Part shown: positions 1-58,003 of the stretch, piece by piece | Position numbering within the stretch: position 1 is the stretch's first letter | Layout of the letters: each line of letters begins with the position of its first letter | Assembly (NCBI GenBank): GCA_964569045.1 | Contig: CAZMSR010000001.1 | Coordinates: 2,593-66,592 of the forward strand | Source of the DNA: an uncultured Gammaproteobacteria bacterium | Lineage (GTDB): Bacteria; Patescibacteriota; Patescibacteriia; Patescibacteriales; BS150m-G62 | Reading direction: 5' to 3' | DNA: 64,000 nucleotides | Made by a program: the position numbers and the translations under genes | The notes under the pieces: generated by a model | The model's input: the letters and a program-made list of their open reading frames with translations, nothing else | Database searches by the model: none | Told to the model about the DNA's origin: nothing

Positions 1-137
1 GCAGATTTTTTTTATATAAAATGATCGTCAATGAGTTAGTCTTCTTCTTGAAATATTATAATTTTGTGTTAGACTGGATGGGTTGGTCATTGACAAATAA
101 TTTGAATATTAATAGCTAGCTCTGAAGGAGTTGTACC

Positions 138-2441
138 ATGGTGGAAGCAAAAAAATACGAAATTGTAAAAGAAGAGTTACCATCTCTTTATGGAGAGATT
201 GAAAAAAAATGGGATGATTTAAAAAAATTGCAATTAGATAATACAAAGCATCAGCAGGAGTCATTAAAAAAAACAGAAGCAGTCAGTCGTGTGTTAAAAG
301 AATGTATTTCAGAATTGCCTCTTAATGATATTCTAGATAATACTCTAAAAATAATACTTGCAGAAAATTGGTTAAAGCTAACTCATAAAGGAGCAATTTT
401 TCTTTTTGATCGTGAAAATGAAGTACTTCGTTTAGTTGCATGGACTGATTTAGATACTGAATTGGTTAAAGAGTGCGCAAGCATTAATATTGGTCAATGT
501 TTGTGTGGCAAGGCAGCTAAAAATCGTTCTAGTATATATAAAGATTCTATAGATCATGATCACTCAATTTTTTTTGATGGCATTGATGAGCATGGTCATT
601 ATTGTTTATCAATAGTATGTAATGATGAATTACTTGGAGTGCTTTGTTTATATTTAGATGCCGGTCATAAACAAAATGAAGAAGAAATGCAGTTTTTGTC
701 AGATATAGTAAATGTTTTAGCTAGCGTAATTGTTCGGAAGAGGGAAGAGGATAAAAGACTAGTGTATAAAGCTGTAATTGAAGGTAGTAGTGATGCAATT
801 ATTTTTACTTGTAAAAATTGGATTATTGAAGAGGTTAATGAGGCGTTTAAACATGTAACCGGATTTGAAGAAGGTGATGTTATTGGAAGAAGTTTTGCGA
901 TTCTTCAAAATGATATGTTTGATTGTTATGATGAGGAATTCTACAGAGGAATGCAGGTTGCTTTAAGTCAAGCCGGAGAATGGCGAGGAGATTTAAAAAT
1001 AAGAAGAAAAAACGGTGCATTTAGCATTGTTTATGTAAGTATTAAGCCAATTATTTCAAAAGATGAAAAAAATGGGTTAGCATGGTCACTACACGACATT
1101 AACATGGAGCGACAATATGCAGATCGGCTTCGTAAAGTAAGTATGCAGGATCCATTAACGCGTGCTCCTAACAGGTTAGTTTTAGAGCAGAATATGAGGC
1201 TTGTAATTTCTAATAATATTCGCGATAAGCAAATGCATGCACTTTTGTTGATAGATTTGGATAGATTTAATAAAGTAAATGACACTTTTGGTCATGCAGC
1301 TGGAGATGATTTGTTAAAGCAGGCTTTGGCACGTATTAATGGTTGTGTAAGAGATGGTGATACTGTTGCTCGCCTTGGAGGTGATGAATTTGCAGTTTTA
1401 TTAGTTAATATCGAGAGCAGAGATAATGCTGAGAGAATTGCATGCAATATAGTCCGGGTGATAAATAGGGAATTTAATATTAGGGAGTGCAAAGCAAATA
1501 TTGGTTCATCAATAGGTATAGCAATTTTCCCTGAGCATGGAAAAAGTGTTTCTGACTTATTAAATGCAGCAGACGTGGCATTGTATTATGTTAAAGAAAA
1601 TGGACGAAATGGTTGTTGTGTTAGTTCTGAGACATTAGTGCTTAGTTCGCGTGAAAAAAATACACTAGAGGCTGATTTACGAAAGGCTTTAAAAAACGGT
1701 AATCAATTTATTCTTGTTTATCAGCCAAAAGTAGACTTAGAAACCGGTCAATTTGTTGGCGTGGAAGCTCTTGTAAGATGGAGTCATCCGGAAAAGGGTC
1801 TAATATCGCCTAATGATTTTATTTCAGTTGCAGAAAATTCTGGTTTAATAGACGCTCTTGGTGAGTGGGTATTAACAGAAGCGTGCAGGCAAGGACATGA
1901 GTGGGCAAAAGCCGGTTTTAATGATATTGGCATTGCTGTTAATTTGTCATCGCGACAATTTAAAGAAAGTGATGATTTAGTTCATATAGTTAGTGGTGTG
2001 TTACGCAAAACCGGTTTTAATTCTAAAAACCTTGAACTTGAAATAACTGAAAGTGCAGCTGCGCGCAATATGGAAAGTGTAGTAAGACAAATGAGCCAAC
2101 TTTGTGCTCTTGGTGTATCATTTTCACTTGACGATTTTGGTACCGGCATGTCATCTTTGGGCTATCTTAGACAATTTCCAATCAAAGTTTTAAAAATTGA
2201 TCGTTCATTTGTTTTGTCAGATGATCAGTCGATTATTAGGGCAATAGTATTAATGGCTTATGAGCTTGGTTTAAAGGTGGTCGCTGAAGGCGTTGAAAAA
2301 GAAGAGCAAATAGTATGGTTAAAAGAAATTGGTTGCAATATGGCACAAGGTTATTATTGCTCGCGTCCGGTTTTACCTGAATTAATAATCAAATTACTAA
2401 AGAAAAAGCCAAGTCCTATGCAATGTACGTTAGGTTTATAA
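138..2441 (+). CDS. GAF-PAS-GGDEF-EAL c-di-GMP signalling protein (diguanylate cyclase/phosphodiesterase)
   Basis: 767-aa ORF with AAGGAG 7 nt upstream of ATG. RLGGDEF motif followed by EAL-domain motifs VEALVRW, ELEITES, DDFGTG, KIDRSF. N-terminal GAF-like and PAS-like sensory segments. Confidence 0.9.
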   Translation: MVEAKKYEIVKEELPSLYGEIEKKWDDLKKLQLDNTKHQQESLKKTEAVSRVLKECISELPLNDILDNTLKIILAENWLKLTHKGAIFLFDRENEVLRLVAWTDLDTELVKECASINIGQCLCGKAAKNRSSIYKDSIDHDHSIFFDGIDEHGHYCLSIVCNDELLGVLCLYLDAGHKQNEEEMQFLSDIVNVLASVIVRKREEDKRLVYKAVIEGSSDAIIFTCKNWIIEEVNEAFKHVTGFEEGDVIGRSFAILQNDMFDCYDEEFYRGMQVALSQAGEWRGDLKIRRKNGAFSIVYVSIKPIISKDEKNGLAWSLHDINMERQYADRLRKVSMQDPLTRAPNRLVLEQNMRLVISNNIRDKQMHALLLIDLDRFNKVNDTFGHAAGDDLLKQALARINGCVRDGDTVARLGGDEFAVLLVNIESRDNAERIACNIVRVINREFNIRECKANIGSSIGIAIFPEHGKSVSDLLNAADVALYYVKENGRNGCCVSSETLVLSSREKNTLEADLRKALKNGNQFILVYQPKVDLETGQFVGVEALVRWSHPEKGLISPNDFISVAENSGLIDALGEWVLTEACRQGHEWAKAGFNDIGIAVNLSSRQFKESDDLVHIVSGVLRKTGFNSKNLELEITESAAARNMESVVRQMSQLCALGVSFSLDDFGTGMSSLGYLRQFPIKVLKIDRSFVLSDDQSIIRAIVLMAYELGLKVVAEGVEKEEQIVWLKEIGCNMAQGYYCSRPVLPELIIKLLKKKPSPMQCTLGL

Positions 2442-2466: not shown

Positions 2467-2490
2467 TCCTTCGTTATGAGGGATTTTTTT
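2467..2490 (+). terminator. candidate intrinsic terminator after the GGDEF-EAL gene
   Basis: 6-bp stem TCCTTC/GAGGGA (one G-U pair), 5-nt loop, then T7. Lies about 26 nt after the stop codon. Confidence 0.3.
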
Positions 2491-2501
2491 ATGCCAAATG
2501 G

Positions 2502-2546
2502 TTAATTGGGAATGGTATAATTTATGAATGAAACGAGTTTGGTAAT
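2502..2546 (+). repeat. composite intergenic repeat: TTAATTGGGAATGGTAT motif abutting a degenerate MITE-A end
   Basis: 2502..2518 matches 9611..9627 (reverse complement) and 9751..9767. 2518..2546 (AATTTATGAATGAAACGAGTTTGGTAA) resembles the subterminal plus TIR end AATTTATGAATTAAAGCGAGTTTGGCGA of the 160-bp MITE. Confidence 0.4.
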
Positions 2547-9595: not shown

Positions 9596-9610
9596 TACTA
9601 TTAATTATTA

Positions 9611-9767
9611 ATACCATTCCCAATTAAACATTTAGAAAACATTCCTGAATTTCGACTACAAAATTCGCTTCGCATTCAACATAACTCATTATGTCTTACG
9701 CTTTAGCTTGTTTTTCACTCAAAATTAAGAAATATTTTTATTCCGAAGTATTAACCGGGAATGGTAT
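9611..9767. repeat. 157-bp inverted-repeat (MITE/REP-like) element between the beta and gamma subunit genes
   Basis: ATACCATTCCCAATTAA (9611..9627) and TTAACCGGGAATGGTAT (9751..9767) are 17-nt inverted repeats with 2 transition mismatches. A third copy of the motif is at 2502..2518. Confidence 0.5.
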
Positions 9768-10496
9768 AACAGAATTTTTTGCAATGCATTCTACGTTTAT
9801 TTCTCCGATTTTATATTCTTTTTCTAAGTTTTTTTGATATTCCCAAGTACTTTTTGCTGTCATGGTCTTCCAATTTGTCGGACAAAAAGCAATGACTTCA
9901 ATAAAAGAAAATCCTTTGTTACTAAGTTGCCAATTAAGCGCTTTTTTTATTGTATCTTTTAAGTGAATCGGGTTGCTTGTTGTTGATCTGGCTATGTAGG
10001 CATCGTTGTTAATGCAGCGTACAGATTCCGGTCCTTTGTAGTAGTATTCATCGGCTCCCTTTGGTGTAGTAGCGGTTATTTGCCCGGGTAAGGTGGTGGG
10101 TGCTTCTTGCCCACCTGTCATGGCATAGGTTGTGTTATTAATTACTATTACTGTGATATTATCATCCCGAACCGCTGTGTTAACTAAATGTTGTGCTCCA
10201 ATCGCATATGCTCCACCATCGCCCAAGTAAGCAATTGATAGTGATTCCGGCTTTGCTCGTTTGTAGCCAACTATAGTTGGGATGGTTCTTCCATGATGAG
10301 TTTGTAAGCTATCAATATCAAAATAATTCCAAGCAAGCAATGAGCATCCAATATCAAGACCAAGTATAGTTTTATTTTGAGCTTTTAAGTCGTCTATTGC
10401 AAATCCGATATTTTTTAAAACAATCTGATGTCCGCAACCCGGGCAAAAAGTATTTGGTTTACTATTTAATTTTACACATTTAGGGAGTGGAGGCAT
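9738..10496 (-). CDS. 2-oxoacid:ferredoxin oxidoreductase beta subunit (TPP-binding)
   Basis: FCPGCGH and GDGGAYAIGAQHLVN motifs. The last ~10 codons (..NSVIPFPVNTSE) are encoded by the right inverted repeat of the 9611..9767 element. Confidence 0.85.
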   Translation of the reverse strand: MPPLPKCVKLNSKPNTFCPGCGHQIVLKNIGFAIDDLKAQNKTILGLDIGCSLLAWNYFDIDSLQTHHGRTIPTIVGYKRAKPESLSIAYLGDGGAYAIGAQHLVNTAVRDDNITVIVINNTTYAMTGGQEAPTTLPGQITATTPKGADEYYYKGPESVRCINNDAYIARSTTSNPIHLKDTIKKALNWQLSNKGFSFIEVIAFCPTNWKTMTAKSTWEYQKNLEKEYKIGEINVECIAKNSVIPFPVNTSE

Positions 10497-20436: not shown

Positions 20437-20533
20437 AGAGTATTAAGTTTGATTTTTTTAGTAAATTGAGTAAAGTATTTACATTAGTTAATCTGATTGT
20501 ATTATACAAATTATAGTATAGCATAAATACTTA

Positions 20534-20693
20534 GGGACTGTCGCCAAACTCACTTTAATTCATAAATTTGGAAATTTTAAGATAAATTTTTTGAATAATT
20601 TTTGAGGCATACCCTAAGGTAAGCCAAAAAAATTTGAAAAAAATTTAGCCAAAATTAACAATTTATGGGTGAAGCGAGTTTGGCGACAGTCCC
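20534..20693 (+). mobile_element. MITE-A copy 1 (160 bp, non-autonomous)
   Basis: Perfect 18-bp terminal inverted repeats GGGACTGTCGCCAAACTC / GAGTTTGGCGACAGTCCC. Flanked by the direct duplication ACTTA. No coding capacity. Confidence 0.8.
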
Positions 20694-20902
20694 ACTTAGC
20701 AAAAACTGCATAGTTATTGCCTAGATCTTGGGTGTTTTTGTGTTAGTTGTATTTTTTGGATTTTTATAATGAAAATTAACCAAAAAATATATGTATTGCA
20801 TTGTGTTAACGGGTGTATGAGGGATTACATTTAAAGAAATTTCCCTATTTTTAAAAAAGTGTTATTATTTGTGTATAATTTAATAAATAATTATAAAAAA
20901 AT

Positions 20903-25793: not shown

Positions 25794-26672
25794 ATGGCTG
25801 GATTAGGAAGAGGATTAGATAGTCTAATCCCAAAAAAAGTCAATAAAATAACAACAACACCGCGAGGTGAGGCGCTTGTTGAAATTACTTCAGAAGATGA
25901 TTTGCAAAGAGTTTTAAAAATCAACCCTAATGAAGTACGCGTTAATCCATATCAGCCAAGAAGAAGATTTAAACAAGAGCAGCTCGAAGAATTAATGGAT
26001 TCAATCCAGCAGCATGGCATTATTCAACCATTGGTTGTAACAGAGGTTGAAGATGGTGTATATGAATTAATTGCCGGAGAACGAAGATTAAGAGCTTCGC
26101 AGAATCTTGGTTTAGATTTTGTTCCGGCAGTTTTGCGTGATGCTGATAGTCAGCAAAAATTAGAAATGGCATTAGTGGAAAATATTCAAAGAGAAAATCT
26201 TAACCCGATTGAAACTGCCCTTGCATACAGAAAGCTACTAGACGAATTTAATATTAAGCAAGATGAATTAGCAAGAAGAGTTGGTAAAGCTCGACCAACC
26301 GTTGCTAATACGCTTAGAATGCTAAATTTGCCCACTGATATTCAAGATGGATTAATTGATGGCGCTATAACGGAAGGACACGCTAAATTAATAGCAGGAT
26401 TAGAAGAGGAAATAAAACAAAAGCAACTTTATGATCAAATTGTAAATAACAAGATGTCGGTAGGCGCTACTCTTAAGGAAACAAGACGCTTAGGAGGCAC
26501 TAAAGAGGCCAGAGTAAAGATAAGCGCAGAAGACAAAGAAAAAGAATATTTACTAAGAGAATGGCTAGAAACTAAAGTTGAAATTATGAGAAATTCTAAA
26601 GGTGGTGGAAGAATTGCAATAGATTTTTATTCTGATAAAGATTTAGATAAGATTTTAAAAAAAATGAGTTAA
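25794..26672 (+). CDS. parB: chromosome partitioning protein ParB/Spo0J
   Basis: ParB-box IAGERRLRAS, HTH QDELARRVGKARPTVANTLRML, and the NPYQPRR N-terminal motif. Confidence 0.92.
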   Translation: MAGLGRGLDSLIPKKVNKITTTPRGEALVEITSEDDLQRVLKINPNEVRVNPYQPRRRFKQEQLEELMDSIQQHGIIQPLVVTEVEDGVYELIAGERRLRASQNLGLDFVPAVLRDADSQQKLEMALVENIQRENLNPIETALAYRKLLDEFNIKQDELARRVGKARPTVANTLRMLNLPTDIQDGLIDGAITEGHAKLIAGLEEEIKQKQLYDQIVNNKMSVGATLKETRRLGGTKEARVKISAEDKEKEYLLREWLETKVEIMRNSKGGGRIAIDFYSDKDLDKILKKMS

Positions 26673-26722: not shown

Positions 26723-26744
26723 AATAAAAAATACTTGTTCATGT

Positions 26745-26789
26745 AAAATTTCCAAATTTATAAATTAAAGCGAGTTTGGCGACAGTCCC
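26745..26789 (+). mobile_element. MITE-A remnant (one end only)
   Basis: AAAATTTCCAAATTTATAAATTAAAGCGAGTTTGGCGACAGTCCC matches the right 45 bp of the copy at 56693..56852. No left TIR is present. Confidence 0.6.
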
Positions 26790-26826: not shown

Positions 26827-26866
26827 AAAAAAAACACCCCTCGAAAAGTGATTCTTTCGAGGGGGG
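26827..26866 (-). terminator. strong intrinsic terminator oriented on the minus strand with no annotated upstream gene
   Basis: On the minus strand: CCCCTCGAAA - 8-nt loop - TTTCGAGGGG (10-bp perfect stem), then TG + T8. On the plus strand the hairpin lacks a T-run. Confidence 0.55.
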
Positions 26867-27065
26867 ATTGATGAGACGTTTTTGAGCGTCAGATCTCTTG
26901 GTAGTTACGAGGTACAAAGCATGCATGTTTTTGTTTGTAAGCATTTTTCCTGTCAAGCATGGCCCTTAATTCTGCAAGTTGCCACGTGACTTTAGGAGAG
27001 TTGTTTACAAACTTCCCAGAAATAAGAGTTGAGTTATATATTAATACTATCATATATTGCTTAAA

Positions 27066-28682
27066 ATGTCAATAGATTGTGTGGCTAAAATTCAAAATTT
27101 ACCAAAATCAAGGATTTTTTTTGTGTGCCTTATTATTTTTATAATCAGTATTGCTATAGCGTCTTATTTGCCATTTAAAATAAAAAGTTATTCTATTCAA
27201 TTATTTTTCATAATCAGTATATTAACATTTTTTTCATTTTTTATAAAAAAGCCAAAAATTTTTCGTATAATATTAATCTGGTTAACATTTTTATCTCTGG
27301 CTTTTTGTCGTTTAGCTCTAAGTGCGCCAAGTCTTAACAATAGTATTCAAAATTATAATAATTCTAAAATTAATTTTGTTGGATTAATTTTACTTTATCC
27401 GGAAAAAAGAATCAATAATCAAAAATTAGTAATCAAAGTAGAAAAAGTTCATAAAGTAAACAAAGCAAAAAATGCTGCTAGCTTAAATAAAGTTACAGGC
27501 AAAGTTCTGATATTAACTAATTTGTATCCTTCATATAAATATGGCGATAAGCTGCAGATTATATGCAATTTAAAAGCTCCAAAGCAGTTTCGTGACTTTG
27601 AGTATGATCGTTTTTTAGCAAAGTCCGGCATATACTCACTTTGTTATTATCCTCAAATTAAACTAATTAGCAAAAACAATGGCAGTTCATTTTATACTTT
27701 TTTATACACTGTAAAATCAAAGTTGCAAAAAACAATAAATTCAAAAATTAATGAGCCTTATGCCGGATTAGCGCGAGCTATAATTCTTGGAGATAAAAGC
27801 GGCATAACCAGCAATATGCGTGATAGTTTTTCAAAATCCGGTATTAGTCATGTTGTAGCTATTTCCGGAATGCATATTAGCATAATTTCTACTTTATTAA
27901 TGAGTATTTTAATATATATCGGGCTAAAGCGAAAGGTAGCTTTTATTTTTGCAAGTATATTTTTAGTATTCTATATATTATTAATCGGAGCTCCACCTTC
28001 TGCGGTAAGAGCGGGGTTTATGGGAATTATTGTTTTAATTGCTCTTTATATTGGTCGTTTAAATAAAATTTCTAATGCATTAGCTTTAGCTGCGGCAATG
28101 TTATTAATAATTAATCCCTTGTTATTAAGAGACGACATTGGCTTTCAATTATCATTCTTGGCTGTTATTGGGATAGTTATATTTTATCCAATTTTTAATA
28201 ATTTATTTTTAGAAAAAATAAAAAAATCGAGTGTTGTAAATAGATTACCTTTTATTTTAAATAGACTAATGATTATTTCTATGCAAATAGTTTTTGTTAC
28301 TCTTGCCGCTCAATCATTAGTACTTCCGATTATTATTAATAATTTTAAAGTTTTTTCTTTAATTTCTCCTTTAACTAATCTATTAGTTCTTTGGCTTTTA
28401 CCATTTTTAATGGTTTTAATAATTTTTGCTTTGATTATTAGTTTTTTTATACCAATAGTTAGCACTCTAATTTTTACTGTTGTAGAGTTAATGCTAAAAT
28501 ATATTGTTTGGGTTTCAAATTCTTTAACAAAATTTTCATTTTCTTTTTTAGAAGTAAATTACTTAAGTAATTTTTGGTACTTAACTTATTACACCATGCT
28601 AGTCGGAGTATGTTATATGTATTGCCTTTATGAGAAAAAAACAAAAAAAACGTGTCATAATAGCATTGATTTTAATAATTAA
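27066..28682 (+). CDS. comEC: ComEC/Rec2 competence channel, membrane (DUF4131 + Competence) part
   Basis: Polytopic protein with the GISHVVAISGMHISII signature. Ends 53 nt inside the next ORF after an A7-C-A8 tract. The ORF-track start 27057 is a TTG; ATG is at 27066. Confidence 0.8.
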   Translation: MSIDCVAKIQNLPKSRIFFVCLIIFIISIAIASYLPFKIKSYSIQLFFIISILTFFSFFIKKPKIFRIILIWLTFLSLAFCRLALSAPSLNNSIQNYNNSKINFVGLILLYPEKRINNQKLVIKVEKVHKVNKAKNAASLNKVTGKVLILTNLYPSYKYGDKLQIICNLKAPKQFRDFEYDRFLAKSGIYSLCYYPQIKLISKNNGSSFYTFLYTVKSKLQKTINSKINEPYAGLARAIILGDKSGITSNMRDSFSKSGISHVVAISGMHISIISTLLMSILIYIGLKRKVAFIFASIFLVFYILLIGAPPSAVRAGFMGIIVLIALYIGRLNKISNALALAAAMLLIINPLLLRDDIGFQLSFLAVIGIVIFYPIFNNLFLEKIKKSSVVNRLPFILNRLMIISMQIVFVTLAAQSLVLPIIINNFKVFSLISPLTNLLVLWLLPFLMVLIIFALIISFFIPIVSTLIFTVVELMLKYIVWVSNSLTKFSFSFLEVNYLSNFWYLTYYTMLVGVCYMYCLYEKKTKKTCHNSIDFNN

Positions 28683-36204: not shown

Positions 36205-39200
36205 GTGCATAGGAAAAATTTTTTTCTAAAAACAAAAATTTTCAAACAAAAGGCAATAAGTGCCTTGATTTTTGTTTTTATATTTGTGCAAGTGGGTGTG
36301 CCGATAGTGGAGGCTCAGTCAAGACCTAGTAATTTGGCGCTAGCTTCTGCAGAAATAAAAACTAAAGCATATGGAACCGAGCAAGTAATTAAAAAACAAA
36401 CTAGGACTGACAAGGATCGTACTGCTGAGCAGATTCGTCAAGAAAGGTTAAAACAGCTTAATGATAAAGCAAAAAAAAGTACTTTTAGAAGTGTTGTTAG
36501 TAGTGTGCTTAATACTATAGCCTATGACACTGCTTCTTGGCTTGGGGCTGGAGGAAAAGGTCAAAAACCATTGTTTATTCGCGAAGGTTGGGGTGAATAT
36601 TTATCTAATATTGGTGATCAAGCTCTTGGGCAGTTTATTGAAGAGTTTGCTAAAGATTTTGTAGGAGACGCTTGTAACCCGGAAGTTGGTTTAAAAATAT
36701 CACTTGGGATGAAAGGTCAGCAACGACCAACTTTTGGAAAGTGTAGTTTTACTCAGATGGTTGATAACTGGGAACAAGCAATTGAAAGCACTGACTTTTT
36801 AAATAATTTTCAAAGTGTATTTGATCTGAATAATAGCACAACAGATATAAGCATGGCATTAAACGCAAATATTGGATTGCTTGAGTTTCAATTAAGTGAG
36901 CAAGAAAAAGGAAAAAGAACAAGAGGTAATACAGATGAAAATCTTCCACGTGACCCTGCCGGTCGTGCCACAGCACCGCCAGGAATGGCATCGGTTTTAA
37001 CCGAAGAGCCTCTTGAATGGTTTAGACAAAACTGCGCTAATCCTTCCGGAGATACTGTTTTGGTAGAAGCTATGACAGTATTTGTTTGTCAATTGTCTTA
37101 TACTGCTTTTGTGACTTTGCTTATGGATTTACTGGCTGATAAGCCAACAGTAACCGAGCCATATAGTGGTTCGTATAGTTTTGAGTCCGGTCCTAGAGCT
37201 GATGGAATATCAGGAACTAATGAATATATGCGTAGTATTCTTCAGCCTAATTTTGATATTCGCGGTGATTATGAAATTTTATCTGAATTAGTAAACTGCC
37301 CTAATCCTAATAAAGCCGGGCCAACAAACTGCGTAATAACTGAAAATTTTCGTAAGGCAATTTCAGAACGTAAAACAGTTAAAGAGGCTTTAAATGGATA
37401 TTTAAATCCGCAAGGAATATTTGGTTTTGTTTCTGAGGATCTAGAGCCATTGTATAATGAAGGTTATCCGTATAGATCAATGATTATTTTGCGTAAATTT
37501 AGAATTTTGCCTGTTGGGTGGGAATTAGCTGCTGAATATATAAGAAATAACCCAAGCGTTGGTACATTTAATTTGCAAGATCTTGTTGATTGTTATGATT
37601 CGACAGATAGTAATATGGCATGGTGCAGTGGCTTAGTTGACCCTGATTGGGTATTAAAAGCGCCGCTTAATAGCTGTAAATTAGAAGGACCAGGCCCGGA
37701 GATTATGCGCGAAAGTGTTGTGGGGCAAGGTGTTAATTCAAGAAGATCAGTTCAGCGTAATACTACATATTGTGCTGATGAGCAAAGTTGCATTAAAGAG
37801 CGAGATGATGGGTCATGCGATGCACACGGATATTGCACGGAAGAAAAACGTACTTGGAATTTTGCTGCTGAATCATGCAACCCTATTTTTAATACTTGCG
37901 ACACTTTTACTAGAGTAGATAATGATTCTTTTACTGTTAGTTATTTGCAAAATACTTTAGACACATGTGGTCAAAATGAAATTGGTTGCAAAGAATATTC
38001 AACTAAAGTTGAAACAGATGAATACGAGCCAATAACAGATGTTGTTAGTGAGTGGAGTGGTAGTCAAACTGATTCTATATTTTTTAATTCAAATGCAGCA
38101 GAGTGCACTGTAGACGAAGAAGGTTGCCATATGTTTTTAAGAGAAGCTACTAATAATACACCTACTTATTTAAAATTGCTTCCTGATTACTTGGGTCAAG
38201 TTTGCTATAATTTAGGCACAGATACAAGCGAATACTATAATTACAAAGAAGATCTAACGCCTGAAGTTAAAGCGCGTTGCGAACAATTTGTAAGGCGTTG
38301 TAATGCTAGCGAAGTAGGTTGCGAGCTATATACTGACATAGTACGCGGTGATAAGATCCCGGCTAAAATAACAACTTTAAACCAATGCCCAAATGAATGT
38401 GTTGGCTTTGATGAGTATCAAAAACGCGAAACTATTTTTGAAAGTAGTGAGAGCGCCTATTTTATCCCAAGATACGCTGATACTTGCCGCCTGGACATGG
38501 TTGGTTGCGATGAATTTACAAACTTAGACGAAGTAGCCCGCGGCGGTGAGGGTCGCGAATACTATGTTGATTTAAAACAATGCGTTGACCCGGACGAACC
38601 GGAAGGCGAAGCTTGCTCTAACTTTTACATTTGGGAGCAGCTTAACACCGGCCCGCAGTTAAACGTATTAAATTTAAAGGCAGATGCAAAAAATGGTGGC
38701 GCACCCGTAGTTACAAACAGCAATGAAGATTGCACAGAACAAACTTTTAACAATCCGGAGCATCCTAACTACAACCCTGATTGCCAAGAATTTTTAGACG
38801 AAAACGGTGAAAAGCACTACAAGCTTTACTCTAAAACAATTACCTGTTCCCAAGATTGCCATACCTACAGAAGAGCCGGGCAGAATATTGATTATAGTAT
38901 TGCAAAAAATAGTTGCAATAACGGAAGCAACGGTGATGAAAAAGGCTGGAGTTCAACACATAACGCTTGCGTGGTTTGTAAAAACGGTGGTAAATGGAAT
39001 TCAAGCCAAGGCGCTTGCCTCTATAGCGCTATACCCGGCGAAGGGCGTTTATGCTCCCAAGAATTTGCCGGTTGTCGCGAATACTCAGGCCCACAAGCTG
39101 CTAATGTTCGCGAAATCGCGCGCTATGATTTTGAAGGGGTTCATCCTTCTTTAGCTGATTGGAGTAATGCTGAAATAGCTAACGAAGCTTTGTTAATAAA

Positions 39201-42200
39201 CGGGCAGTCAATAACAAATACTTCAAGTCAAAGCTCAGTCTCACTTAATTTGGGCGGTAGATTAAGACCCGGTAGCACATATATACTTTCTTTTTACGTA
39301 AAGCCCGGTAATACTGCTAATTTTAAAGTGAAAATTGATGATACTAATGGTTCTGAGATTAAAGGACTAAAGCAAGACAAATGGCAAAGAGTTGAAGAAT
39401 TAATAACTTTAACCAATAGCGTTGCTAATCAAACAATGTCTATTGGATATGATAATGGAAGCACAAAATTCTACATTGATGACTTTAGGTTAATAGAGGT
39501 GATTGACAGATATTATTTTATGAAAGATTCTTTTGAGATTCCATCAATGTGTCATCAAGAATATTGGAAGCTTCTTAGTCCGGAAAATTATCCGATTCCT
39601 TTTAATGAAGGTGGTTATCCTTTTCCAAATTATTCGCTTGGATGCCGCGAATATCAAGATAGAGAAAGCGCTTCACATTTTTTAAAAGATTTTACAGAAC
39701 TATGCCAAGAAACAGCAGTCGGCTGCGAACGCATGATAGATACCCATAATTATACAGGTGAGGGAGCTGAAGCATGGAATGAAAGTAATCCGAATGAAGG
39801 CGATGATGCCTGCGATTCCGGAGAACAAAGCTGCGTTTCTGTTCTGGCTAATAACTTAGTGTATGTAGTATATGATACTGAAAAGCAGTGTAATGCAGAT
39901 GATAAAGGTTGCTCAAGATTTGGCGAGAAAAAGTCTGTTGCAGGTACTCCGTATTACGAAGATGCTTATATTAAAAATAATCCGGATCATTATAGTACTT
40001 CAGTAGATTCTGATGCTATTTTATGCACTCAAGATGGTATTAGTTGTAAAGCTTGGATTTCGGAAATTAATGGTACGCGCTATTTTAAAGATCCGGAAGG
40101 CAAGGAGTGTGAATGGCGAGCTAATAGTGATGGAATAGAAAATTGGTATCAAAAAAAAGCGAATCGTTGTGATACAGATAGCAACGGAGTAATTAATGAT
40201 AGTGAAAATCTTCCAGCTAATAGTGGAGCGAATGGTGCATTAAGCCCGGCTTGCGCAAGCGCTCGTTCTTGCAGTGTAATCACTGATCCGTCTGATAGCT
40301 GCCAAAAAGACAGTGATTGTGGTAATAATACTTGCATTGATTCGCAGTGTCGTTATTCTTGTATTCGTGATAATCGAGATCATGTGTGCGGTAATCAAAA
40401 TGCTTTAAAAACAATTGGCTCAAATGGTGTTAATTCTCACATTAGTCAGCCAAGTGGCAGTGATGGTTGGGTTGGGGTTTGCCCAATTCGTGAATCCGGA
40501 TGCACAGAATATATTGATCCAATTGCAGAATTTAGCACAAATTTAGTATTTAACCCAAGCGGTGAAGAAATTGCCGGAGTTAATAATGCAGGTTGGGAAA
40601 ATCATACTCCAAACGGATTTAAGCAGGAGATCGAAGTCGAACCGGCTACGCTTTATACAATTAAAGGCGCAACTAAGTTTCAGTGTGATAATGCTATAGA
40701 TAAAATGAATTCAGATAATGTTTTGGTAAATGTGGCATTAACTACAGATATTACTTTGACAAATGGAGAAAGTATTTTATTTAAAACAAATAATAATGCT
40801 AATAAATGTACTGTTTTTAGGGATGGTGATGTAACGGAAGTTATCTTACGCAAAGCAGAGGCGAATTATAGGTTATTAAAAGATATTGACAGAAGTTCTT
40901 GCCATGAACCTGATTTTGATAGTGGCTGTATTTTGTTTAATGAAAGAACTCAGTTTGGCTATAGCGAGAATATGAGTAGTCTTTCTTATAATGCTGACAA
41001 TTTAGAGGCTTTGAATAATTGTACAAATGGAGCTAATTGTGACTCAAACCAAATTTTAAAAGTTGAACCTAATAGAGTTTGCGCTGAATGGCTTGCGTGC
41101 AGGTCAATGGTTAAGGTTAGGGATGAAGATGGTCAAGAATCAAGTGTTTGCCTAGGTGTTGGAGCATGTAATGGTCTTGATAGTAATGATGAATGTAGTA
41201 GTTTTGTAAGAAAAGAAAGAATAAATAATGACTATACAAAAGATAGCGTAACAGCGGCAAGTGTTAGTAATTTATCCGGATATTCTAAGATTGGGTACTC
41301 AAAATATAAAAACAATGCTCAATTGCCATCATTTGAACGAAATGATTTATTTTCATTAAGTGCTATGAGTCAGGTTGGTGAAATTGCAGTAGTGCCAAAT
41401 GGTAGCTTTGAATTTTCAGGTGAGAATGGATACCCGATTGGTTGGAGTTGGGATAATCAAGAAGAAGTTGATAAGGTTTGGACACCAAATGTTTTTAAAG
41501 TAATTAATAGTCCTTATGAGGTAAAAGAAGTTGAAGTTATTAATTTTTCACCTGCCGGAGAGGGATTTATTAAAATTGGTTCATCTCATGTAGTAATTTC
41601 AGAAGAAATAGATGTTGAGCCTCAAAGAGATTATATTTTTACTGCCTATATTAATACTCAAAATTTACAGGTTGGTAACGGTGTGATTGATATTGTATCA
41701 GCCGGAGAATCTATTACTAGCACAACAGAAGATCAAGGAGGTGAGGGTTGGATATTTAAAATAAAGAAATTTAGATCAAATTCAAATCAAATTAATATTA
41801 AACTATATAATGATGACAACGATTCTTCAGGAGTTTTTTATGTAGATGGAATAAAATTAAGACCGGCTTTACATACTAGAATTGAATCTACTGAAACTGA
41901 AGACCAAACTAGTTCTGACAATTGGTATGTGCCGCAATCATGCAAACTTTATCCTGAGCCAAGTTCCTTAGCTTGCGAGTATATTGATGACTCCGGTGTT
42001 AATCAAAGGGGGTTGTATGGATATTGCTTAGAATATGATAGATATCCGGGTGATGAAAACACATGTTTGCTTTGGTATCCGGTTAATAGAGTTAAAGGCG
42101 ATTGGATAGAAGAAGGTGCGGGCTATAGTGATAGGTTTCCTCTTTATTATTGCCTTGAAGCAGTTGGATACTGCTCTGGAACAGAAGGTGAGATACCGGC

Positions 42201-44076
42201 ATTGTATTGTAATAAGTTAGTTAAGGTTGTAACAGAAACAGGTAAAAGTAAGTTTTGGTATTCAAGGGTTAGGGAAGGCAGTGATCATAGTATTGAATTT
42301 AGTAATGCAAGTGAAAATAAGCATATTTATTGGGGGGCAATTAATCCAATGGGGCACGAGATTGTTAATTTAGGTTATTCGCGTGATTCTAGTCCGTATG
42401 GTAGTATTGTAGCTCCTGCGCCAACTCATAATCCTTTTGAGTGGGATGGGTTAAAGCGACGAGGCAAAGAAGTTTTAAAAGAACCATTACAGATTTATGA
42501 TGCAATATCAGGAGAGGGATTAATTAGAGCCGGTACCCCGTATTATGGCAATGGAATTACTTGTCGAAAAGTATTTGAGCGTGAGCGATACGGAAGTTGT
42601 GGGACTCGTCATGAAGTAAATAGAGGAATTTGGGATTCATGTACAATGAAGTCATATAATGATGATTGTAACACAGCTACACCTTTTGCCTCCACAACCA
42701 ATGAATTAGGAGAAGTTATAACTACTCATGTTGATTGTTGCGGTGGTCGTGGTAGAAAATTAACAGTAACAACACAGTGTTTTAGTGATTTAAAATATAA
42801 TATAGCTGAAAATGAGGTGCAGGCAGTTAGTGGGTTAAAATCAATTTTTGCTCAAAGTTATGGTACTTGGGTATGGAATGGTAATGATGAAAGTGGTTTT
42901 TATGAAAAAGTGCCAGATGATATGGATATTACAACTAAACAGCAATGTGTTTCAGATGATCCAGGAACTGTAGGCGTAGAATGCGCAATGAATAATTCTA
43001 ATGACTGCCCATATGGTTATTGCCCTAAAAGTAATAATGTGCAAGAAGGGGACAGTTTAGGCTATTATCAGTGCGGTGTCTTGAATATATCTTGTTGTCC
43101 GGAAAATAAAAAAGTTTTAATTGATTCATGTAAAAGTATTGATGGAGATTTTAATTGCGTTGAGGGTTTTTGTGATAAGCTTCCAAGCCAAGCATGTACT
43201 ATAGAATATAGATGTAATTTAACAGACACAACTCAGGTAATAGTTGATACTCATGATTGCAGTCAATATAATAATGCAATATGTAAAGAAGTTACTACTC
43301 TTAATGCTTCAAAAACTTGTATAGGTGGCGAGAATCATGGGCATGTGTGTCAGGCGCATGCATGTATAAATGGAGTTTGTGATCTTGTTTCAACTTATGA
43401 GTCTAGCAATAGTAGTTCAGGAAGTCATAGCTGGGAACCTCCGAATAGTATTTGTGAGAATAATACACGCCCTGATTACCATAATGATTCTTCTAAAAAT
43501 GGTAATGGTAATAATAGTTATTGCGCAGTAACGCCAAGTATTACAAATATTCGTATTGATAATCCAAATATAGTTAAAACAGGTTTTGTTAATTTAACTT
43601 TTAATTCAGATGTTAATGAAGATCAATTACCATTAACAATGGTTTCAGTTGATTGGGGTGATGGAAAGGAAACAACAATTACTGGTGCTGACATGCTTGA
43701 TAGGTCAAATAATAAATACCCTCACTCATTCTATCATTTATACGACTACTGGGATTTAAAAAGAAGTGATGCAGACAATGATGGCATCATCTGTGAAACA
43801 GAGAGTACTCCAAGTAACCGCAATTATTGCAAAATTAAACCAAAAGTAAAAATTCGTGATAACTGGGGGTGGTGTAATGCTACTGATACTGCTACTGATA
43901 CTACTACTGATACTACTACTGATACTACTACTGCTACTGATACTACTACTGATACTACTACTGCTACTGATGCTACTACTACTGATACTGATACTGATAC
44001 TGATGCTACTACTACTGCTACTAATTGCAATTATTGGGAGGAATATAACGATGATATTAAAGTTTATGAAAAATAG
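36205..44076 (+). CDS. giant (2623 aa) Cys-rich exported surface protein with CBM4_9-like, PKD-like and Thr/Asp-repeat regions
   Basis: Uninterrupted ORF from GTG 36205. Signal peptide ..VPIVEAQS. About ten GCxE(Y/F)-type motifs. Two jelly-roll-like segments ending FYIDDFRLIEV and FYVDGIKLRPA. VDWGDGKE near the C-terminus. Confidence 0.8.
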   Translation: MHRKNFFLKTKIFKQKAISALIFVFIFVQVGVPIVEAQSRPSNLALASAEIKTKAYGTEQVIKKQTRTDKDRTAEQIRQERLKQLNDKAKKSTFRSVVSSVLNTIAYDTASWLGAGGKGQKPLFIREGWGEYLSNIGDQALGQFIEEFAKDFVGDACNPEVGLKISLGMKGQQRPTFGKCSFTQMVDNWEQAIESTDFLNNFQSVFDLNNSTTDISMALNANIGLLEFQLSEQEKGKRTRGNTDENLPRDPAGRATAPPGMASVLTEEPLEWFRQNCANPSGDTVLVEAMTVFVCQLSYTAFVTLLMDLLADKPTVTEPYSGSYSFESGPRADGISGTNEYMRSILQPNFDIRGDYEILSELVNCPNPNKAGPTNCVITENFRKAISERKTVKEALNGYLNPQGIFGFVSEDLEPLYNEGYPYRSMIILRKFRILPVGWELAAEYIRNNPSVGTFNLQDLVDCYDSTDSNMAWCSGLVDPDWVLKAPLNSCKLEGPGPEIMRESVVGQGVNSRRSVQRNTTYCADEQSCIKERDDGSCDAHGYCTEEKRTWNFAAESCNPIFNTCDTFTRVDNDSFTVSYLQNTLDTCGQNEIGCKEYSTKVETDEYEPITDVVSEWSGSQTDSIFFNSNAAECTVDEEGCHMFLREATNNTPTYLKLLPDYLGQVCYNLGTDTSEYYNYKEDLTPEVKARCEQFVRRCNASEVGCELYTDIVRGDKIPAKITTLNQCPNECVGFDEYQKRETIFESSESAYFIPRYADTCRLDMVGCDEFTNLDEVARGGEGREYYVDLKQCVDPDEPEGEACSNFYIWEQLNTGPQLNVLNLKADAKNGGAPVVTNSNEDCTEQTFNNPEHPNYNPDCQEFLDENGEKHYKLYSKTITCSQDCHTYRRAGQNIDYSIAKNSCNNGSNGDEKGWSSTHNACVVCKNGGKWNSSQGACLYSAIPGEGRLCSQEFAGCREYSGPQAANVREIARYDFEGVHPSLADWSNAEIANEALLINGQSITNTSSQSSVSLNLGGRLRPGSTYILSFYVKPGNTANFKVKIDDTNGSEIKGLKQDKWQRVEELITLTNSVANQTMSIGYDNGSTKFYIDDFRLIEVIDRYYFMKDSFEIPSMCHQEYWKLLSPENYPIPFNEGGYPFPNYSLGCREYQDRESASHFLKDFTELCQETAVGCERMIDTHNYTGEGAEAWNESNPNEGDDACDSGEQSCVSVLANNLVYVVYDTEKQCNADDKGCSRFGEKKSVAGTPYYEDAYIKNNPDHYSTSVDSDAILCTQDGISCKAWISEINGTRYFKDPEGKECEWRANSDGIENWYQKKANRCDTDSNGVINDSENLPANSGANGALSPACASARSCSVITDPSDSCQKDSDCGNNTCIDSQCRYSCIRDNRDHVCGNQNALKTIGSNGVNSHISQPSGSDGWVGVCPIRESGCTEYIDPIAEFSTNLVFNPSGEEIAGVNNAGWENHTPNGFKQEIEVEPATLYTIKGATKFQCDNAIDKMNSDNVLVNVALTTDITLTNGESILFKTNNNANKCTVFRDGDVTEVILRKAEANYRLLKDIDRSSCHEPDFDSGCILFNERTQFGYSENMSSLSYNADNLEALNNCTNGANCDSNQILKVEPNRVCAEWLACRSMVKVRDEDGQESSVCLGVGACNGLDSNDECSSFVRKERINNDYTKDSVTAASVSNLSGYSKIGYSKYKNNAQLPSFERNDLFSLSAMSQVGEIAVVPNGSFEFSGENGYPIGWSWDNQEEVDKVWTPNVFKVINSPYEVKEVEVINFSPAGEGFIKIGSSHVVISEEIDVEPQRDYIFTAYINTQNLQVGNGVIDIVSAGESITSTTEDQGGEGWIFKIKKFRSNSNQINIKLYNDDNDSSGVFYVDGIKLRPALHTRIESTETEDQTSSDNWYVPQSCKLYPEPSSLACEYIDDSGVNQRGLYGYCLEYDRYPGDENTCLLWYPVNRVKGDWIEEGAGYSDRFPLYYCLEAVGYCSGTEGEIPALYCNKLVKVVTETGKSKFWYSRVREGSDHSIEFSNASENKHIYWGAINPMGHEIVNLGYSRDSSPYGSIVAPAPTHNPFEWDGLKRRGKEVLKEPLQIYDAISGEGLIRAGTPYYGNGITCRKVFERERYGSCGTRHEVNRGIWDSCTMKSYNDDCNTATPFASTTNELGEVITTHVDCCGGRGRKLTVTTQCFSDLKYNIAENEVQAVSGLKSIFAQSYGTWVWNGNDESGFYEKVPDDMDITTKQQCVSDDPGTVGVECAMNNSNDCPYGYCPKSNNVQEGDSLGYYQCGVLNISCCPENKKVLIDSCKSIDGDFNCVEGFCDKLPSQACTIEYRCNLTDTTQVIVDTHDCSQYNNAICKEVTTLNASKTCIGGENHGHVCQAHACINGVCDLVSTYESSNSSSGSHSWEPPNSICENNTRPDYHNDSSKNGNGNNSYCAVTPSITNIRIDNPNIVKTGFVNLTFNSDVNEDQLPLTMVSVDWGDGKETTITGADMLDRSNNKYPHSFYHLYDYWDLKRSDADNDGIICETESTPSNRNYCKIKPKVKIRDNWGWCNATDTATDTTTDTTTDTTTATDTTTDTTTATDATTTDTDTDTDATTTATNCNYWEEYNDDIKVYEK
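43879..44022 (+). repeat. in-frame ACT/GAT/GCT trinucleotide tandem repeat (48 codons of T/D/A)
   Basis: Encodes ATDTATDTTTDTTTDTTTATDTTTDTTTATDATTTDTDTDTDATTTAT near the C-terminus of the giant protein. Generates spurious ORFs in other frames. Confidence 0.9.
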
Positions 44077-46236: not shown

Positions 46237-47088
46237 ATGAAAAATATTATACTTTTTGTGTCCATAATTACGTTTGTTGTGTTTGTATTTTTGATTAGCG
46301 GAGTTATATATATTAATAGTCTTAAAGATGAATCTTTAAAAGATATTGATTATTCGGATGATAAAATAAAAAAAACTATAATTAATAAAGAAAAAAAAGA
46401 TAATAACAAAAAATATAAAAAAACAATTATTGAAAATGCCTCTTTACTTCAGCAGCACAAACCAAGTATTTCTAGTGGTCAGTTAAATGAATATATGAAT
46501 ATAATTCAAGAAGATAAAAGCATTAAACATTGCCTTGAGTTTGAGGATAGGGAGTTATGCCAATCTTCTGTAGCATTTATTGCCGGTGATATGGATTATT
46601 GCCATTATTTTGAAGGAAGTTTTAAAAGCAAAAAAGAAGCAAATTTATTTACTAATAATTGTGAAAAATTAATAGTTGTTGAGCAAGGTGCTAAAAATGT
46701 AGAAGCTTGTCAGAAATTAACAGGTGATAAGTACTATGATTGTTTAAGAGGTATTTTTCATATTTTTTTAAATAAAAAGGATTGCGCTACAATAAAACAT
46801 GCCCAAGCTAGGAGTTTGTGCATGGATATTATTACTTACAAAAATGCATATATAAAATACAATCAAGAATTATGCAAGGATGTTAAAGATAAAAAATTAA
46901 ACAATTATTGTAAAAGTAATATTTTAAGTAAAACGCAAGACACTGATAATGATGGGTTACCGGATCTAGACGAAATAAGAATTCATCAAACAGACCCCAA
47001 AAACCCCGACACCGACGGCGATGGCTACACAGATGGCGAAGAAGTGCAGGCCGGGTATAATCCATTGGGAAAAGGTAAGCTTAAATAA
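46237..47088 (+). CDS. N-terminally anchored Cys-containing protein with C-terminal thrombospondin-type-3-like repeats (anchor 2)
   Basis: One TM helix. C-terminus DTDNDGLPDLDEIRIHQTDPKNPDTDGDGYTDGEEVQAGYNPLG. Paralog of 49867..50643. Confidence 0.6.
   Translation: MKNIILFVSIITFVVFVFLISGVIYINSLKDESLKDIDYSDDKIKKTIINKEKKDNNKKYKKTIIENASLLQQHKPSISSGQLNEYMNIIQEDKSIKHCLEFEDRELCQSSVAFIAGDMDYCHYFEGSFKSKKEANLFTNNCEKLIVVEQGAKNVEACQKLTGDKYYDCLRGIFHIFLNKKDCATIKHAQARSLCMDIITYKNAYIKYNQELCKDVKDKKLNNYCKSNILSKTQDTDNDGLPDLDEIRIHQTDPKNPDTDGDGYTDGEEVQAGYNPLGKGKLK
46939..47063 (+). repeat. 125-bp near-identical segment, copy 1 (pairs with 50494..50618)
   Basis: 4 mismatches in 125 bp by eye against 50494..50618, while the rest of the two genes is strongly diverged. 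Confidence 0.85.
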
Positions 47089-55307: not shown

Positions 55308-55943
55308 ATGCCTAGAAATTTAATTGGTGCAATAGTTATTATTATAGGTTTAGTTAGTCTTTTATTTTTTGGGTATGTAGTGTTTTTTAATAAAGAACAA
55401 TCAGTGGAGCATGTAATCACGGAAGAAGCCGCAATTTGGAAAAAAGAGCCGGAAAAAACAGAAAAACAAGAATTTCAAAAAAAAGATTTGCCAAAAAAAC
55501 AGAAAAGAACAATAGTAATAGAGTCAAGCGAGAAAGCTGAATCAATAGAAGAAGTTTTTTTAAATAAAATTGAGGTTGAGCGACTAGCCGGGAATTTTAT
55601 AGAGCGATATGGAAGTTACTCAAGTCAAGCAAATTATGCTAATTTACACGATTCAATGCTCTATATGACTGACGCTATGAAAGAACGAGTTTTAAGAAGC
55701 ATAAAAGCAAGCAAAGCTAGAAAAGAAGTTGATAGAACTGTTTATAAAAGTGTTGCAATACGTGCTGTTGCTCGCAAATTAATTAATTATAACAAAGGTG
55801 ATATTCGTGCGCGAGTGCTAGTTGGGGCGATTCAATCTGAGGTTTTGGGTGACAAGGAAGTAGCATCAAGAAATAGAAATGTTGAGGTACATTTAGTAAA
55901 AGTTGGAAAAACATGGAAAGTAGAAAATGTTATTTGGCAGTAG
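55308..55943 (+). CDS. bitopic membrane protein, possible VirB8/TcpC-like (NTF2-like) component
   Basis: N-terminal TM helix, charged linker, then a ~130-aa C-terminal domain ending VHLVKVGKTWKVENVIWQ. Fold assignment is inferred from layout only. Confidence 0.35.
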   Translation: MPRNLIGAIVIIIGLVSLLFFGYVVFFNKEQSVEHVITEEAAIWKKEPEKTEKQEFQKKDLPKKQKRTIVIESSEKAESIEEVFLNKIEVERLAGNFIERYGSYSSQANYANLHDSMLYMTDAMKERVLRSIKASKARKEVDRTVYKSVAIRAVARKLINYNKGDIRARVLVGAIQSEVLGDKEVASRNRNVEVHLVKVGKTWKVENVIWQ

Positions 55944-56670
55944 TTTAAAAAAAATAATAGAAAATATACGCGATATAGTATTTCCTATTGAATGTTTAGG
56001 ATGTAATTTTGAAGGGTTGTGGATTTGTAAGAGTTGCTTAAGACAAATAAAATTAAATAATACGCAAGTATGTATTTTTTGTAAAAAGGAAAATAAAGGC
56101 GAGGTTTGTAAAGAATGCAAACAGAATTATTTTGTTGATGGATGTGTTTCATTTGGACTATATAGTAATAAATTGTTAAGTAAAATAATTAGAGCTTTAA
56201 AATATAATTTGGCAAAAGAGTTGGCAGAAATACTAGCCAATTTTTTATTTATTTTGTGGAAAAATGAATTATCAAAAAGCTATATTTCAGATAATTATAG
56301 TGGTAATGAATTTATAAATACAGAATGGTTAGTTATTCCGGTGCCACTGCATAAAAGACGCGAAAGATGGAGAGGTTTTAATCAATCAGAGCTCCTAGCT
56401 AAAGCTTTTGCCGCGCGTACTAATTTAGTAACCGATGTAATAAATTTAAAACGAATAAATCAAAGCAAGGCTCAGGCAAAATCAAAATCTGTAAAAAGAC
56501 AACAAAACATTAAAAATGCATTTTCTTGGCAAGGCGTAAATTTAAAAGGACGTGCTGTTTTATTAATTGATGATGTAGTTACAACTGGCGCAACAATAAA
56601 CGAATGCGCCCGTGTTTTAAAGCAAAACGGAGCAACTAGAGTATATGGGTTGACTATTGCAAGAGGATAG
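55927..56670 (+). CDS. comFC: ComF-family phosphoribosyltransferase-domain competence protein (ComFC)
   Basis: N-terminal Cys4 pattern (CLGCN..CKSC, CIFC..CKEC) and PRTase motif LLIDDVVTTGATINEC. Overlaps the upstream gene by 17 nt. Confidence 0.85.
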   Translation: MLFGSSLKKIIENIRDIVFPIECLGCNFEGLWICKSCLRQIKLNNTQVCIFCKKENKGEVCKECKQNYFVDGCVSFGLYSNKLLSKIIRALKYNLAKELAEILANFLFILWKNELSKSYISDNYSGNEFINTEWLVIPVPLHKRRERWRGFNQSELLAKAFAARTNLVTDVINLKRINQSKAQAKSKSVKRQQNIKNAFSWQGVNLKGRAVLLIDDVVTTGATINECARVLKQNGATRVYGLTIARG

Positions 56671-56692
56671 CAAAATAAACCTTTATTATATT

Positions 56693-56852
56693 GGGACTGT
56701 CGCCAAACTCTCCTCACCCATAAATTGTTAATTTTGGCTAAATTTTTTTCAAATTTTTTTGGCTTACCTTAGGGTAGGCCTCAAAAATTATTCAAAAAAT
56801 TTATCTTAAAATTTCCAAATTTATGAATTAAAGCGAGTTTGGCGACAGTCCC
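56693..56852 (-). mobile_element. MITE-A copy 2 (160 bp, inverted relative to copy 1)
   Basis: Same 18-bp TIRs GGGACTGTCGCCAAACTC. The interior is the reverse complement of copy 1 with a few mismatches. Flanked by the direct duplication ATATT. Confidence 0.8.
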
Positions 56853-56911
56853 ATATTGTTTAAATATTTTTTTGTCTTGCGTTTGATTATTAAATAAGTT
56901 TAAATAATAAT

Positions 56912-58003
56912 ATGGAAAATTTAATTAAAAATATTGAAGAGTTAAGAGAAAAGGTTATTAAAACTCAAAAAGCATTAGATGTAGAAGCAAAAAAATCAGA
57001 AGTGCGAGATTTAAAGCGTAAAATGAGCAAGCCGGGATTTTGGGATAACAGGGCAGAGGCAGTACAAATTTCTAAAAAAGCAGAAGTTTTAGAAAGTGAA
57101 GTAGATACTTGGGAAAAGTTAAGATTAGAGATTAGATCACTTGAAGAATATGTTGCTCTGGCAAGTAAAGAAGGTGATGAAACAGTATATGATGAGTGTG
57201 AAAAAAGTTATCTAGACTTAAATAAAAAGTTTAAAGACCTTGAGTTTGCTGTGCTTTTTTCTGAAAAATATGATGAACTTGACGCAATTTTATCAATTCA
57301 TGCCGGATCTGGCGGGGTTGATGCTCAGGATTTTGCTTTAATGCTAGAAAGAATGTATTTGCGTTTTAGTGAAAAAAATAAACTAAAAGTAACACAGGTA
57401 GATAGAATTGTAGCTAATGAAGCTGGTATTAAAAGCGTAACTTATGAAATTAAAGGTAAGTTTGTTTATGGCAATTTAAAAAGTGAAGCCGGAGTACATC
57501 GGTTAGTGCGAATTTCTCCGTTTGATGCTGAATCAATGAGGCACACTTCTTTTGCGCTTGTAGACGTTGTACCGGTAATAGAAGAGGTCGAAAGCATAAT
57601 TATTAATGAAGGTGATTTAAGAATTGATGCCTATAAATCTAGTGGACCCGGTGGGCAAGGCGTTAATACAACTGATTCAGCTATTCGGATTGTTCATATT
57701 CCAACAAATATTACTGTGTCATGTCAAACAGAGCGCTCACAGCATCAAAACAAAGAAACAGCTTTAAAAATTTTAAAATCAAAATTGCATAAAATAGAAC
57801 TAGATAAGCGAGAAGCTAAAGAAGCAGAGTTAAGAGGTGAAATAGAAAAAGCTGAATGGGGAAAACAGATTAGGTCATATGTAATGCAGCCTTATAAAAT
57901 GGTAAAAGATCATCGCACAAAACATGAAACAAGCGATGTTGATGGTGTGTTTAACGGCAATATTAAAGATTTTATTAAAGCTTATTTAAAACATAAATTA
58001 TAG
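56912..58003 (+). CDS. prfB: peptide chain release factor 2
   Basis: SPF tripeptide (RISPFD) and GGQ motif (SGPGGQGVNTTDSA). A single uninterrupted ORF with no internal frameshift site. Confidence 0.92.
   Translation: MENLIKNIEELREKVIKTQKALDVEAKKSEVRDLKRKMSKPGFWDNRAEAVQISKKAEVLESEVDTWEKLRLEIRSLEEYVALASKEGDETVYDECEKSYLDLNKKFKDLEFAVLFSEKYDELDAILSIHAGSGGVDAQDFALMLERMYLRFSEKNKLKVTQVDRIVANEAGIKSVTYEIKGKFVYGNLKSEAGVHRLVRISPFDAESMRHTSFALVDVVPVIEEVESIIINEGDLRIDAYKSSGPGGQGVNTTDSAIRIVHIPTNITVSCQTERSQHQNKETALKILKSKLHKIELDKREAKEAELRGEIEKAEWGKQIRSYVMQPYKMVKDHRTKHETSDVDGVFNGNIKDFIKAYLKHKL

Follow-up and report, generated by a model that had tools for sequence, protein, structure and literature searches.

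The 160-bp repeats at 20534..20693 and 56693..56852 of the window, by which we mean the whole 64-kb stretch of DNA analysed here, are very likely copies of a non-autonomous MITE derived from an IS5-family insertion sequence (IS) of 1.25-1.26 kb that is common in Patescibacteria. The ends of the 160-bp element were found to be shared with ISs of 1248-1259 bp that encode a 333-aa transposase on other contigs, and the length of the target-site duplication (TSD), 5 bp, is common to the MITE and the IS. Since the window holds no transposase and the same terminus bounds an autonomous IS, the repeats are described as a non-autonomous MITE that was presumably moved in trans.

A TIR search with the 18-mer GGGACTGTCGCCAAACTC located five occurrences in the 64-kb window, all with 0 mismatches, at 20534(+), 20693(-), 26789(-), 56693(+) and 56852(-). 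The expected count in the window, estimated from 100 dinucleotide-preserving shuffles, was 0. Four of the five sites bound the two 160-bp units and the fifth forms the end of a fragment at 26744..26789. In copy 1 (20534..20693, + strand), delineated by TIR search, self-alignment and RNA folding, the left TIR occupies 20534..20551 and the right TIR, at 20676..20693 on the - strand, is its perfect reverse complement. Copy 2 (56693..56852, - strand), delineated by TIR search and alignment, is inverted relative to copy 1, and the alignment of the two spanned 160/160 nt with 4 mismatches (97.5% identity, E=2e-75). Direct reading of the flanks gave ACTTA-GGG...CCC-ACTTA for copy 1, with the duplicated pentamer at 20529..20533 and 20694..20698, and ATATT-GGG...CCC-ATATT on the + strand for copy 2, with the pentamer at 56688..56692 and 56853..56857. 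The two TSDs differ from one another, and the chance of a 5/5 flank match is by our estimate ~0.002 per site at ~32% GC. No ORF of >=20 aa was found within either copy. The preliminary description of this DNA is thereby upheld in its account of two inverted copies with few differences, of exact 18-bp TIRs with a separate 5-bp duplication for each copy, and of a lack of coding capacity.

Both full copies are intergenic. Copy 1 lies between a 76-aa ORF and a histidine kinase gene on one side and a 430-aa ORF that starts at 20903 on the other, while copy 2 lies 22 nt behind the stop codon of a gene for a ComF-like phosphoribosyltransferase (55927..56670), with its other end 59 nt upstream of prfB (56912..58003). 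Along with these two full copies, the 64-kb window contains one 46-nt fragment, located between parB (25794..26672) and comEC (27057..28682) on the - strand. This fragment (26744..26789) corresponds to the left end of the element including a perfect TIR and shows 95.7% identity to the left end of copy 1 and 98% to copy 2 (E=3e-16). Only one end is represented, and the match breaks off sharply past nt 46. This solo end is a decayed copy of the 160-bp element, and the remnant previously placed at 26745..26789 is accordingly real, with its boundary shifted by one position. The second, more degenerate remnant that had been proposed, at 2518..2546, is unconvincing: a segment of 24 nt at 2519..2542 (+) matches the sub-terminal part of the element at 87.5% identity, the outer 10 nt of the TIR are missing, and the E-value of 0.012 barely clears the AT-rich background, which leaves it a borderline candidate for a degenerate relic that may be chance. 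The blastn search of the 160-bp unit returned no match among plasmids or phages, and its internal sequence was unmatched both in the collections searched and in the loci fetched.

Further features were observed in the neighbourhood of these sites. The proposed remnant at 2518..2546 directly adjoins one of three intergenic sites, at 2483-2530 (+), 9600-9633 (-) and 9732-9769 (+), that have in common the motif TTAAYYGGGAATGGTATAA(T). The motif includes the extended -10-like sequence TGGTATAAT and has the appearance of a promoter or operator conserved in this organism. Beside the 46-nt fragment, at 26827-26870, a GC-rich hairpin (CCCCTCGAAAG…CTTTCGAGGGG) is followed by a T run on the minus strand and is terminator-like. 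It is adjoined by ~180 nt of unusually GC-rich non-coding sequence (26870-27050), located in the interval from the MITE fragment to comEC, that could represent a minus-strand small RNA; only sub-threshold Rfam matches were obtained for the region 26827-27050.

The host is an uncultured CPR/Patescibacteria bacterium, judging from the sequence of its RF2, for which the best named matches fall in a Patescibacteria group bacterium (72% identity), Parcubacteria and Falkowbacteria. Patescibacteria are also the group in which ISs with these ends abound. The GC content of the window is ~32% and its genes are chromosomal, comprising parA, parB, comEC, GAPDH, the ComF-like phosphoribosyltransferase, prfB, dnaE and a PrgI/TraC/TraG-like cluster. 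The window was located in the JGI contig Ga0115649_1001039 (84,405 bp), from record position 2657. Both insertions recur in independent JGI and ENA assemblies, and Logan short-read contigs stop 26-29 nt inside the element at both copies, as expected of a repeat. The two 160-bp copies are not an assembly artefact.

Additional observations concern the remainder of the contig. The cluster of PrgI-like, TraC-like and TraG P-loop ATPase genes lies upstream of comF at approximately 50000-55300 of the window (L093 2752-7281). Its synteny is kept in the two nearest relatives, and it corresponds to an apparatus, of a kind typical of CPR genomes, that resembles type IV secretion or competence systems. 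Units similar to ACTACTGATACT form a tandem array with periods of 9 and 12 nt at 43853-44053, at the 3' end of a 2623-aa ORF (36205..44076) that is without a Pfam domain. A 161-nt direct repeat (46937-47097 and 50492-50652; 92% identity, 3.5 kb apart) falls within or beside ORFs with bacterial TSP3 repeats, which are probably paralogous surface-protein genes. Approximately 2.6 kb upstream of the window start, the start of contig Ga0115649_1001039 (L079 1-115) is common to three assemblies and reads …GAGCCGTATGCGGGAAATCCGCACGTACGGTTC…, resembling what we take to be domain V (the 3' end) of a group II intron. If it is the end of such an intron, assemblies would break at a second repeat here.

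No transposase was detected in the window by tblastn with the cognate 333-aa transposase (best E=0.07), nor were transposase domains present in the Pfam tables of the genes of the window, as the preliminary description had stated of the window at large. Neither a further copy of the element nor a transposase was found in the 2.6 kb upstream on the source contig or in the ~10 kb downstream on a strain-level contig. A parent IS in the same genome was likewise not recovered from the window or from these upstream and downstream stretches.

Scans with the 18-mer of one representative genome per species yielded 24 loci and scans of a metagenome collection yielded 18, the source genome being in neither; most matches in high-GC contigs were single chance or coding matches. 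A link to phages was considered and rejected, the 16-mer scan of viral contigs having given 17 matches that were all apparently chance or coding. A search for an autonomous parent had been proposed along with the preliminary description, and an IS with the same ends was indeed found in other metagenome contigs. A complete IS of 1258 bp occupies positions 2..1259 of one of these (L058) and holds a single ORF of 333 aa; this IS terminates on the right in the identical 18-mer and on the left in GGGACTGTCGCCAAAT. The product of the ORF matched Pfam DUF772 (5e-20) and DDE_Tnp_1 (7e-14). Fragments of homologous transposases were also found immediately internal to this terminus in L006, a Saccharibacteria contig, and in the metagenome contig L059. 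Complete IS copies with both flanks measured 1248-1259 bp, with the end consensus GG[G/C][A/C]CTGTCGCCAAA, and in 5/5 of these a 5-bp TSD was present (CTTAA in L083, TTAAT in L084, ATGAA in L090, TTCAA in L091 and TATAT in L098). The core within the 18-nt ends is GGGACTGTCGCC.

More than 2300 homologues of the 333-aa transposase were retrieved at E<=1e-20. The best 120 of these showed 68-100% identity at lengths of 320-348 aa, and most were on contigs of ~1.25 kb, which represent the IS as a collapsed repeat that was assembled by itself. Those homologues that bore a name were annotated as 'IS5 family transposase' or as a transposase from Magasanikbacteria, Parcubacteria or the Patescibacteria group. 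In a separate set of metagenome contigs carrying transposase P0173 (L085-L088), the left flank of one IS site was joined to the right flank belonging to a different site. Such contigs are chimeras assembled across the 1259-bp IS and call for caution in the binning of CPR genomes.

The parent IS is best placed in the IS5 family, and it resembles the IS5 group, which includes IS5/InsH of E. coli and ISAba23, in domain architecture, size and C-terminal motif. Like members of that group it is ~1.2 kb long, has short TIRs beginning with GG and carries one ORF of ~330 aa with DUF772 and DDE_Tnp_1. The C-terminal region of its transposase (…FESTFSKQSKRARYRGQTK…) resembles what is presumably the IS5-group signature. 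The NCBIfam model NF033581 IS5_4 covers the transposase end to end (positions 10-284 of 285), although the score of 139.5 bits falls 0.5 bit under the cut-off of 140. The NCBIfam IS1182 model scored 151 bits against a cut-off of 270 and matched the N-terminal part only. The parent IS differs from the IS5 group in the length of its TSD, which is 5 bp in 5/5 copies and in most MITEs whereas 4 bp is typical of the group in ISfinder, and in being a lineage largely limited to Patescibacteria contigs. It is also distant from the nearest annotated plasmid relatives, with 28% identity to the named IS5-like transposase (IS5-like element ISAba23 family transposase) and 43% to an unnamed one of Ca. Bandiella. 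A similar end, GGGAGTGTTGCAAGA, is present on the Ca. Bandiella element, which shows no clean TSD, and the ends of ISAba23 differ from the 18-nt terminus.

The same TIR, together with a 5-bp TSD, was found on short non-coding elements (98-163 bp) of further CPR contigs and of a Bradymonadales MAG. These elements comprise a 98-bp element in Kaiserbacteria (L012, flanking repeat ACGAA), elements of 99 bp (L059, ATTAA), 98 bp (L062, ATCTT) and 160 bp (L060, CTGAG; interior different) in metagenome contigs, and elements of 104 bp (L008, GCAAT) and 163 bp (L020, TTTGT) in the Bradymonadales MAG. The elements of L059 and L062 represent one family at two separate sites. In L052, a 499-bp element with these ends (646-1144) retains part of the transposase N-terminus in decayed form (24% identity) and has the flanks AAAAT and CAAAT, which agree at 4/5 positions. 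Its structure suggests an intermediate form, an internally deleted IS en route to a MITE. The earlier assertion that the 160-bp copies bear the footprint of real transposition is strengthened by these data, as the terminus bounds autonomous ISs with a 5-bp TSD in 5/5 cases as well as short elements with 5-bp TSDs in unrelated genomes. The claim of a new family can be upheld in a narrow sense only. The interior of the element is unmatched in the collections searched, whereas the lineage defined by its TIR and transposase is abundant in Patescibacteria.

The Bradymonadales MAG, REDG01, is not a CPR genome and has a GC content of ~50%. Eight of its loci (L001, L008-L011, L014, L020 and L021) contain short repeats beginning with the identical 18-mer, and the opposite end of these repeats, where found, is GGGAGTGTCGCTAAAG. 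Three elements could be delimited, of which two have the 5-bp TSD and the third (L014, 181 bp) has a flanking repeat of 7 bp, not 5 bp. As the identical 18-mer bounds repeats in this MAG, the data suggest that the IS lineage crosses phyla.

Alignment of the 160-bp element to its own reverse complement gave 78% identity over 164 columns (E=2e-25), showing it to be a nearly perfect palindrome of 80+80 nt. Both MITE ends continue …CAAACTC[G/A]CTT…, much as the IS does at its right end (…CAAACTCGTTT / …CAAACTAACTTT), whereas the left end of the IS instead reads …CAAATACCC and is unlike either MITE end. Past ~20 nt, the interior of the MITE had no match to any IS copy recovered. Because the element is a near-palindrome and both of its ends resemble the right end of the IS, it probably arose by fold-back duplication of one IS end and not by simple internal deletion. 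This sets it apart from the IS-derived bacterial MITEs of the IS5, IS630 and IS1 families, which are internally deleted ISs and not near full-length palindromes of two right-end-like arms; a CPR bacterium as host is a further difference. In other respects the likeness is close: the element is short, non-coding and intergenic, has strong hairpin potential, and shares with an autonomous IS identical TIRs and the length of the TSD. Full-text literature searches found no description of MITEs in CPR/Patescibacteria.

By analogy with the MITEs of other IS families, we infer that mobilisation takes place in trans through the 333-aa DDE transposase. The transposase, produced from an autonomous copy that is or was formerly located elsewhere in the genome, would bind both 18-nt ends. 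It would then excise or copy the element and join it to a target cut with a 5-nt stagger, the repair of which would give rise to the 5-bp duplication.

Whether the element still moves in this genome is a question of current activity. It may be that the MITE entered the genome or was amplified there long ago and is now immobile for want of a matching transposase, a possibility that we hold to be real if somewhat less than even. This is a variant of the MITE explanation, with the same nature and another current activity, and is no true alternative to it. It is consistent with the lack of a transposase in the 64-kb window and in the ~2.6 kb upstream and ~10 kb downstream, with the existence of one truncated copy, and with the lack of insertion polymorphism among strain-level assemblies. 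The copies have, however, kept 97.5% identity, perfect TIRs and intact TSDs, which argues for fairly recent movement, and the absence of a transposase covers only the small visible part of the genome. As regards the insertion sites, the comparison with empty sites that had been suggested previously yielded filled sites only, in that every strain-level contig found by exact-protein look-ups of the flanking genes carries both insertions. In the nearest relatives, in which RF2 is 71-72% identical, the comF-prfB-dnaE synteny is kept and the comF-prfB intergenic region consists of an unrelated 670-709 bp with a small ORF and no TIR, too diverged to compare. Both full copies are probably old or neutral insertions. 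A candidate new insertion splitting dnaE in one assembly (L067) was rejected, as no TIR or inserted element is present at the break and the flanks are continuous dnaE coding sequence; a point frameshift or stop in the L067 assembly seems to be the cause.

The palindromic MITE would, if transcribed, form a long hairpin according to RNA folding. The predicted fold of copy 1 is one long hairpin of -71.7 kcal/mol (z=-14), and copy 2 gave z=-11.6. Stability of this order, over the full length of the element, invites the explanation that the repeats are structural ones selected by the host, such as a regulatory RNA hairpin, a terminator or an mRNA stabiliser, or that they are a MITE since domesticated for such a role. 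Both copies occupy short intergenic spaces, copy 2 tightly between comF and prfB, and both are fixed in all strains seen, which speaks for such a role. We nevertheless regard this explanation as improbable. The TSDs and the terminus shared with an autonomous IS account for the origin of the repeats with no appeal to function, the two copies are oppositely oriented relative to their neighbour genes, and the four differences between them are not compensatory. Furthermore, no such element occurs at the syntenic comF-prfB site in relatives. Rfam searches of the element at gathering and E-value thresholds returned no family at threshold, only sub-threshold generic hairpins of plant miRNA precursors. 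Consensus scans of the element for outward promoters and terminators located no terminator-like site, and the promoter-like matches did not exceed shuffled expectation; a check for outward promoters had been proposed along with the preliminary description.

Derivation from an IS5-family IS also bears on the Tn3-family link that had earlier been drawn from the 5-bp TSD and the GGG-initial TIR, both features of Tn3-family ends too. That the repeats are miniature elements derived from the Tn3 family (TIME-like) and mobilised by a Tn3-type transposase is scarcely credible, since the same 18-nt end bounds 1.25-kb elements whose sole gene encodes the 333-aa DUF772 and DDE_Tnp_1 transposase, all autonomous elements recovered with this terminus have a transposase of IS5 type, neither in the window nor next to the terminus, in those loci for which genes were examined, did a Tn3-type transposase or resolvase turn up, and the perfect TIR, of 18 nt and starting GGGACTG, is unlike the ~38-nt terminus starting GGGG of Tn3 elements. 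The 5-bp TSD does not discriminate between the two origins because the IS5-like parent has it too. TIMEs, the Tn3-derived inverted-repeat miniature elements, thus resemble the 160-bp element in their 5-bp TSD and in a TIR starting with G's, and differ from it in TIR length and sequence and in the transposase partner, which here is of IS5 type.

The 160-bp element works like any IS-derived bacterial MITE and involves no new mechanism. Descriptions of mobile elements from the tiny CPR/Patescibacteria genomes are few, and in this case a MITE is tied to an abundant IS of IS5 type, by which a lineage with a 5-bp TSD is added to the IS5 family. The defined ends and the 5-bp TSD provide a signature for annotation, and the element accounts for contig breaks in these assemblies. 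It may also serve as a marker in studies of CPR strain dynamics and of horizontal transfer between CPR bacteria. A broader proposal, which we consider rather doubtful when taken as a whole, is that the 1.26-kb IS and its MITEs constitute an undescribed subgroup of the IS5 family (5-bp TSD, terminus GGGACTGTCGCCAAA) that has spread across many lineages of Patescibacteria and into Bradymonadales, and that palindromic MITEs may be retained in streamlined genomes of ~1 Mb as their hairpins act on neighbour genes, for instance by ending or stabilising transcripts in the comF-prfB interval. If this were true, the identical 18-nt end in Bradymonadales would mean that ultra-small episymbionts and other bacteria have recently exchanged DNA horizontally.
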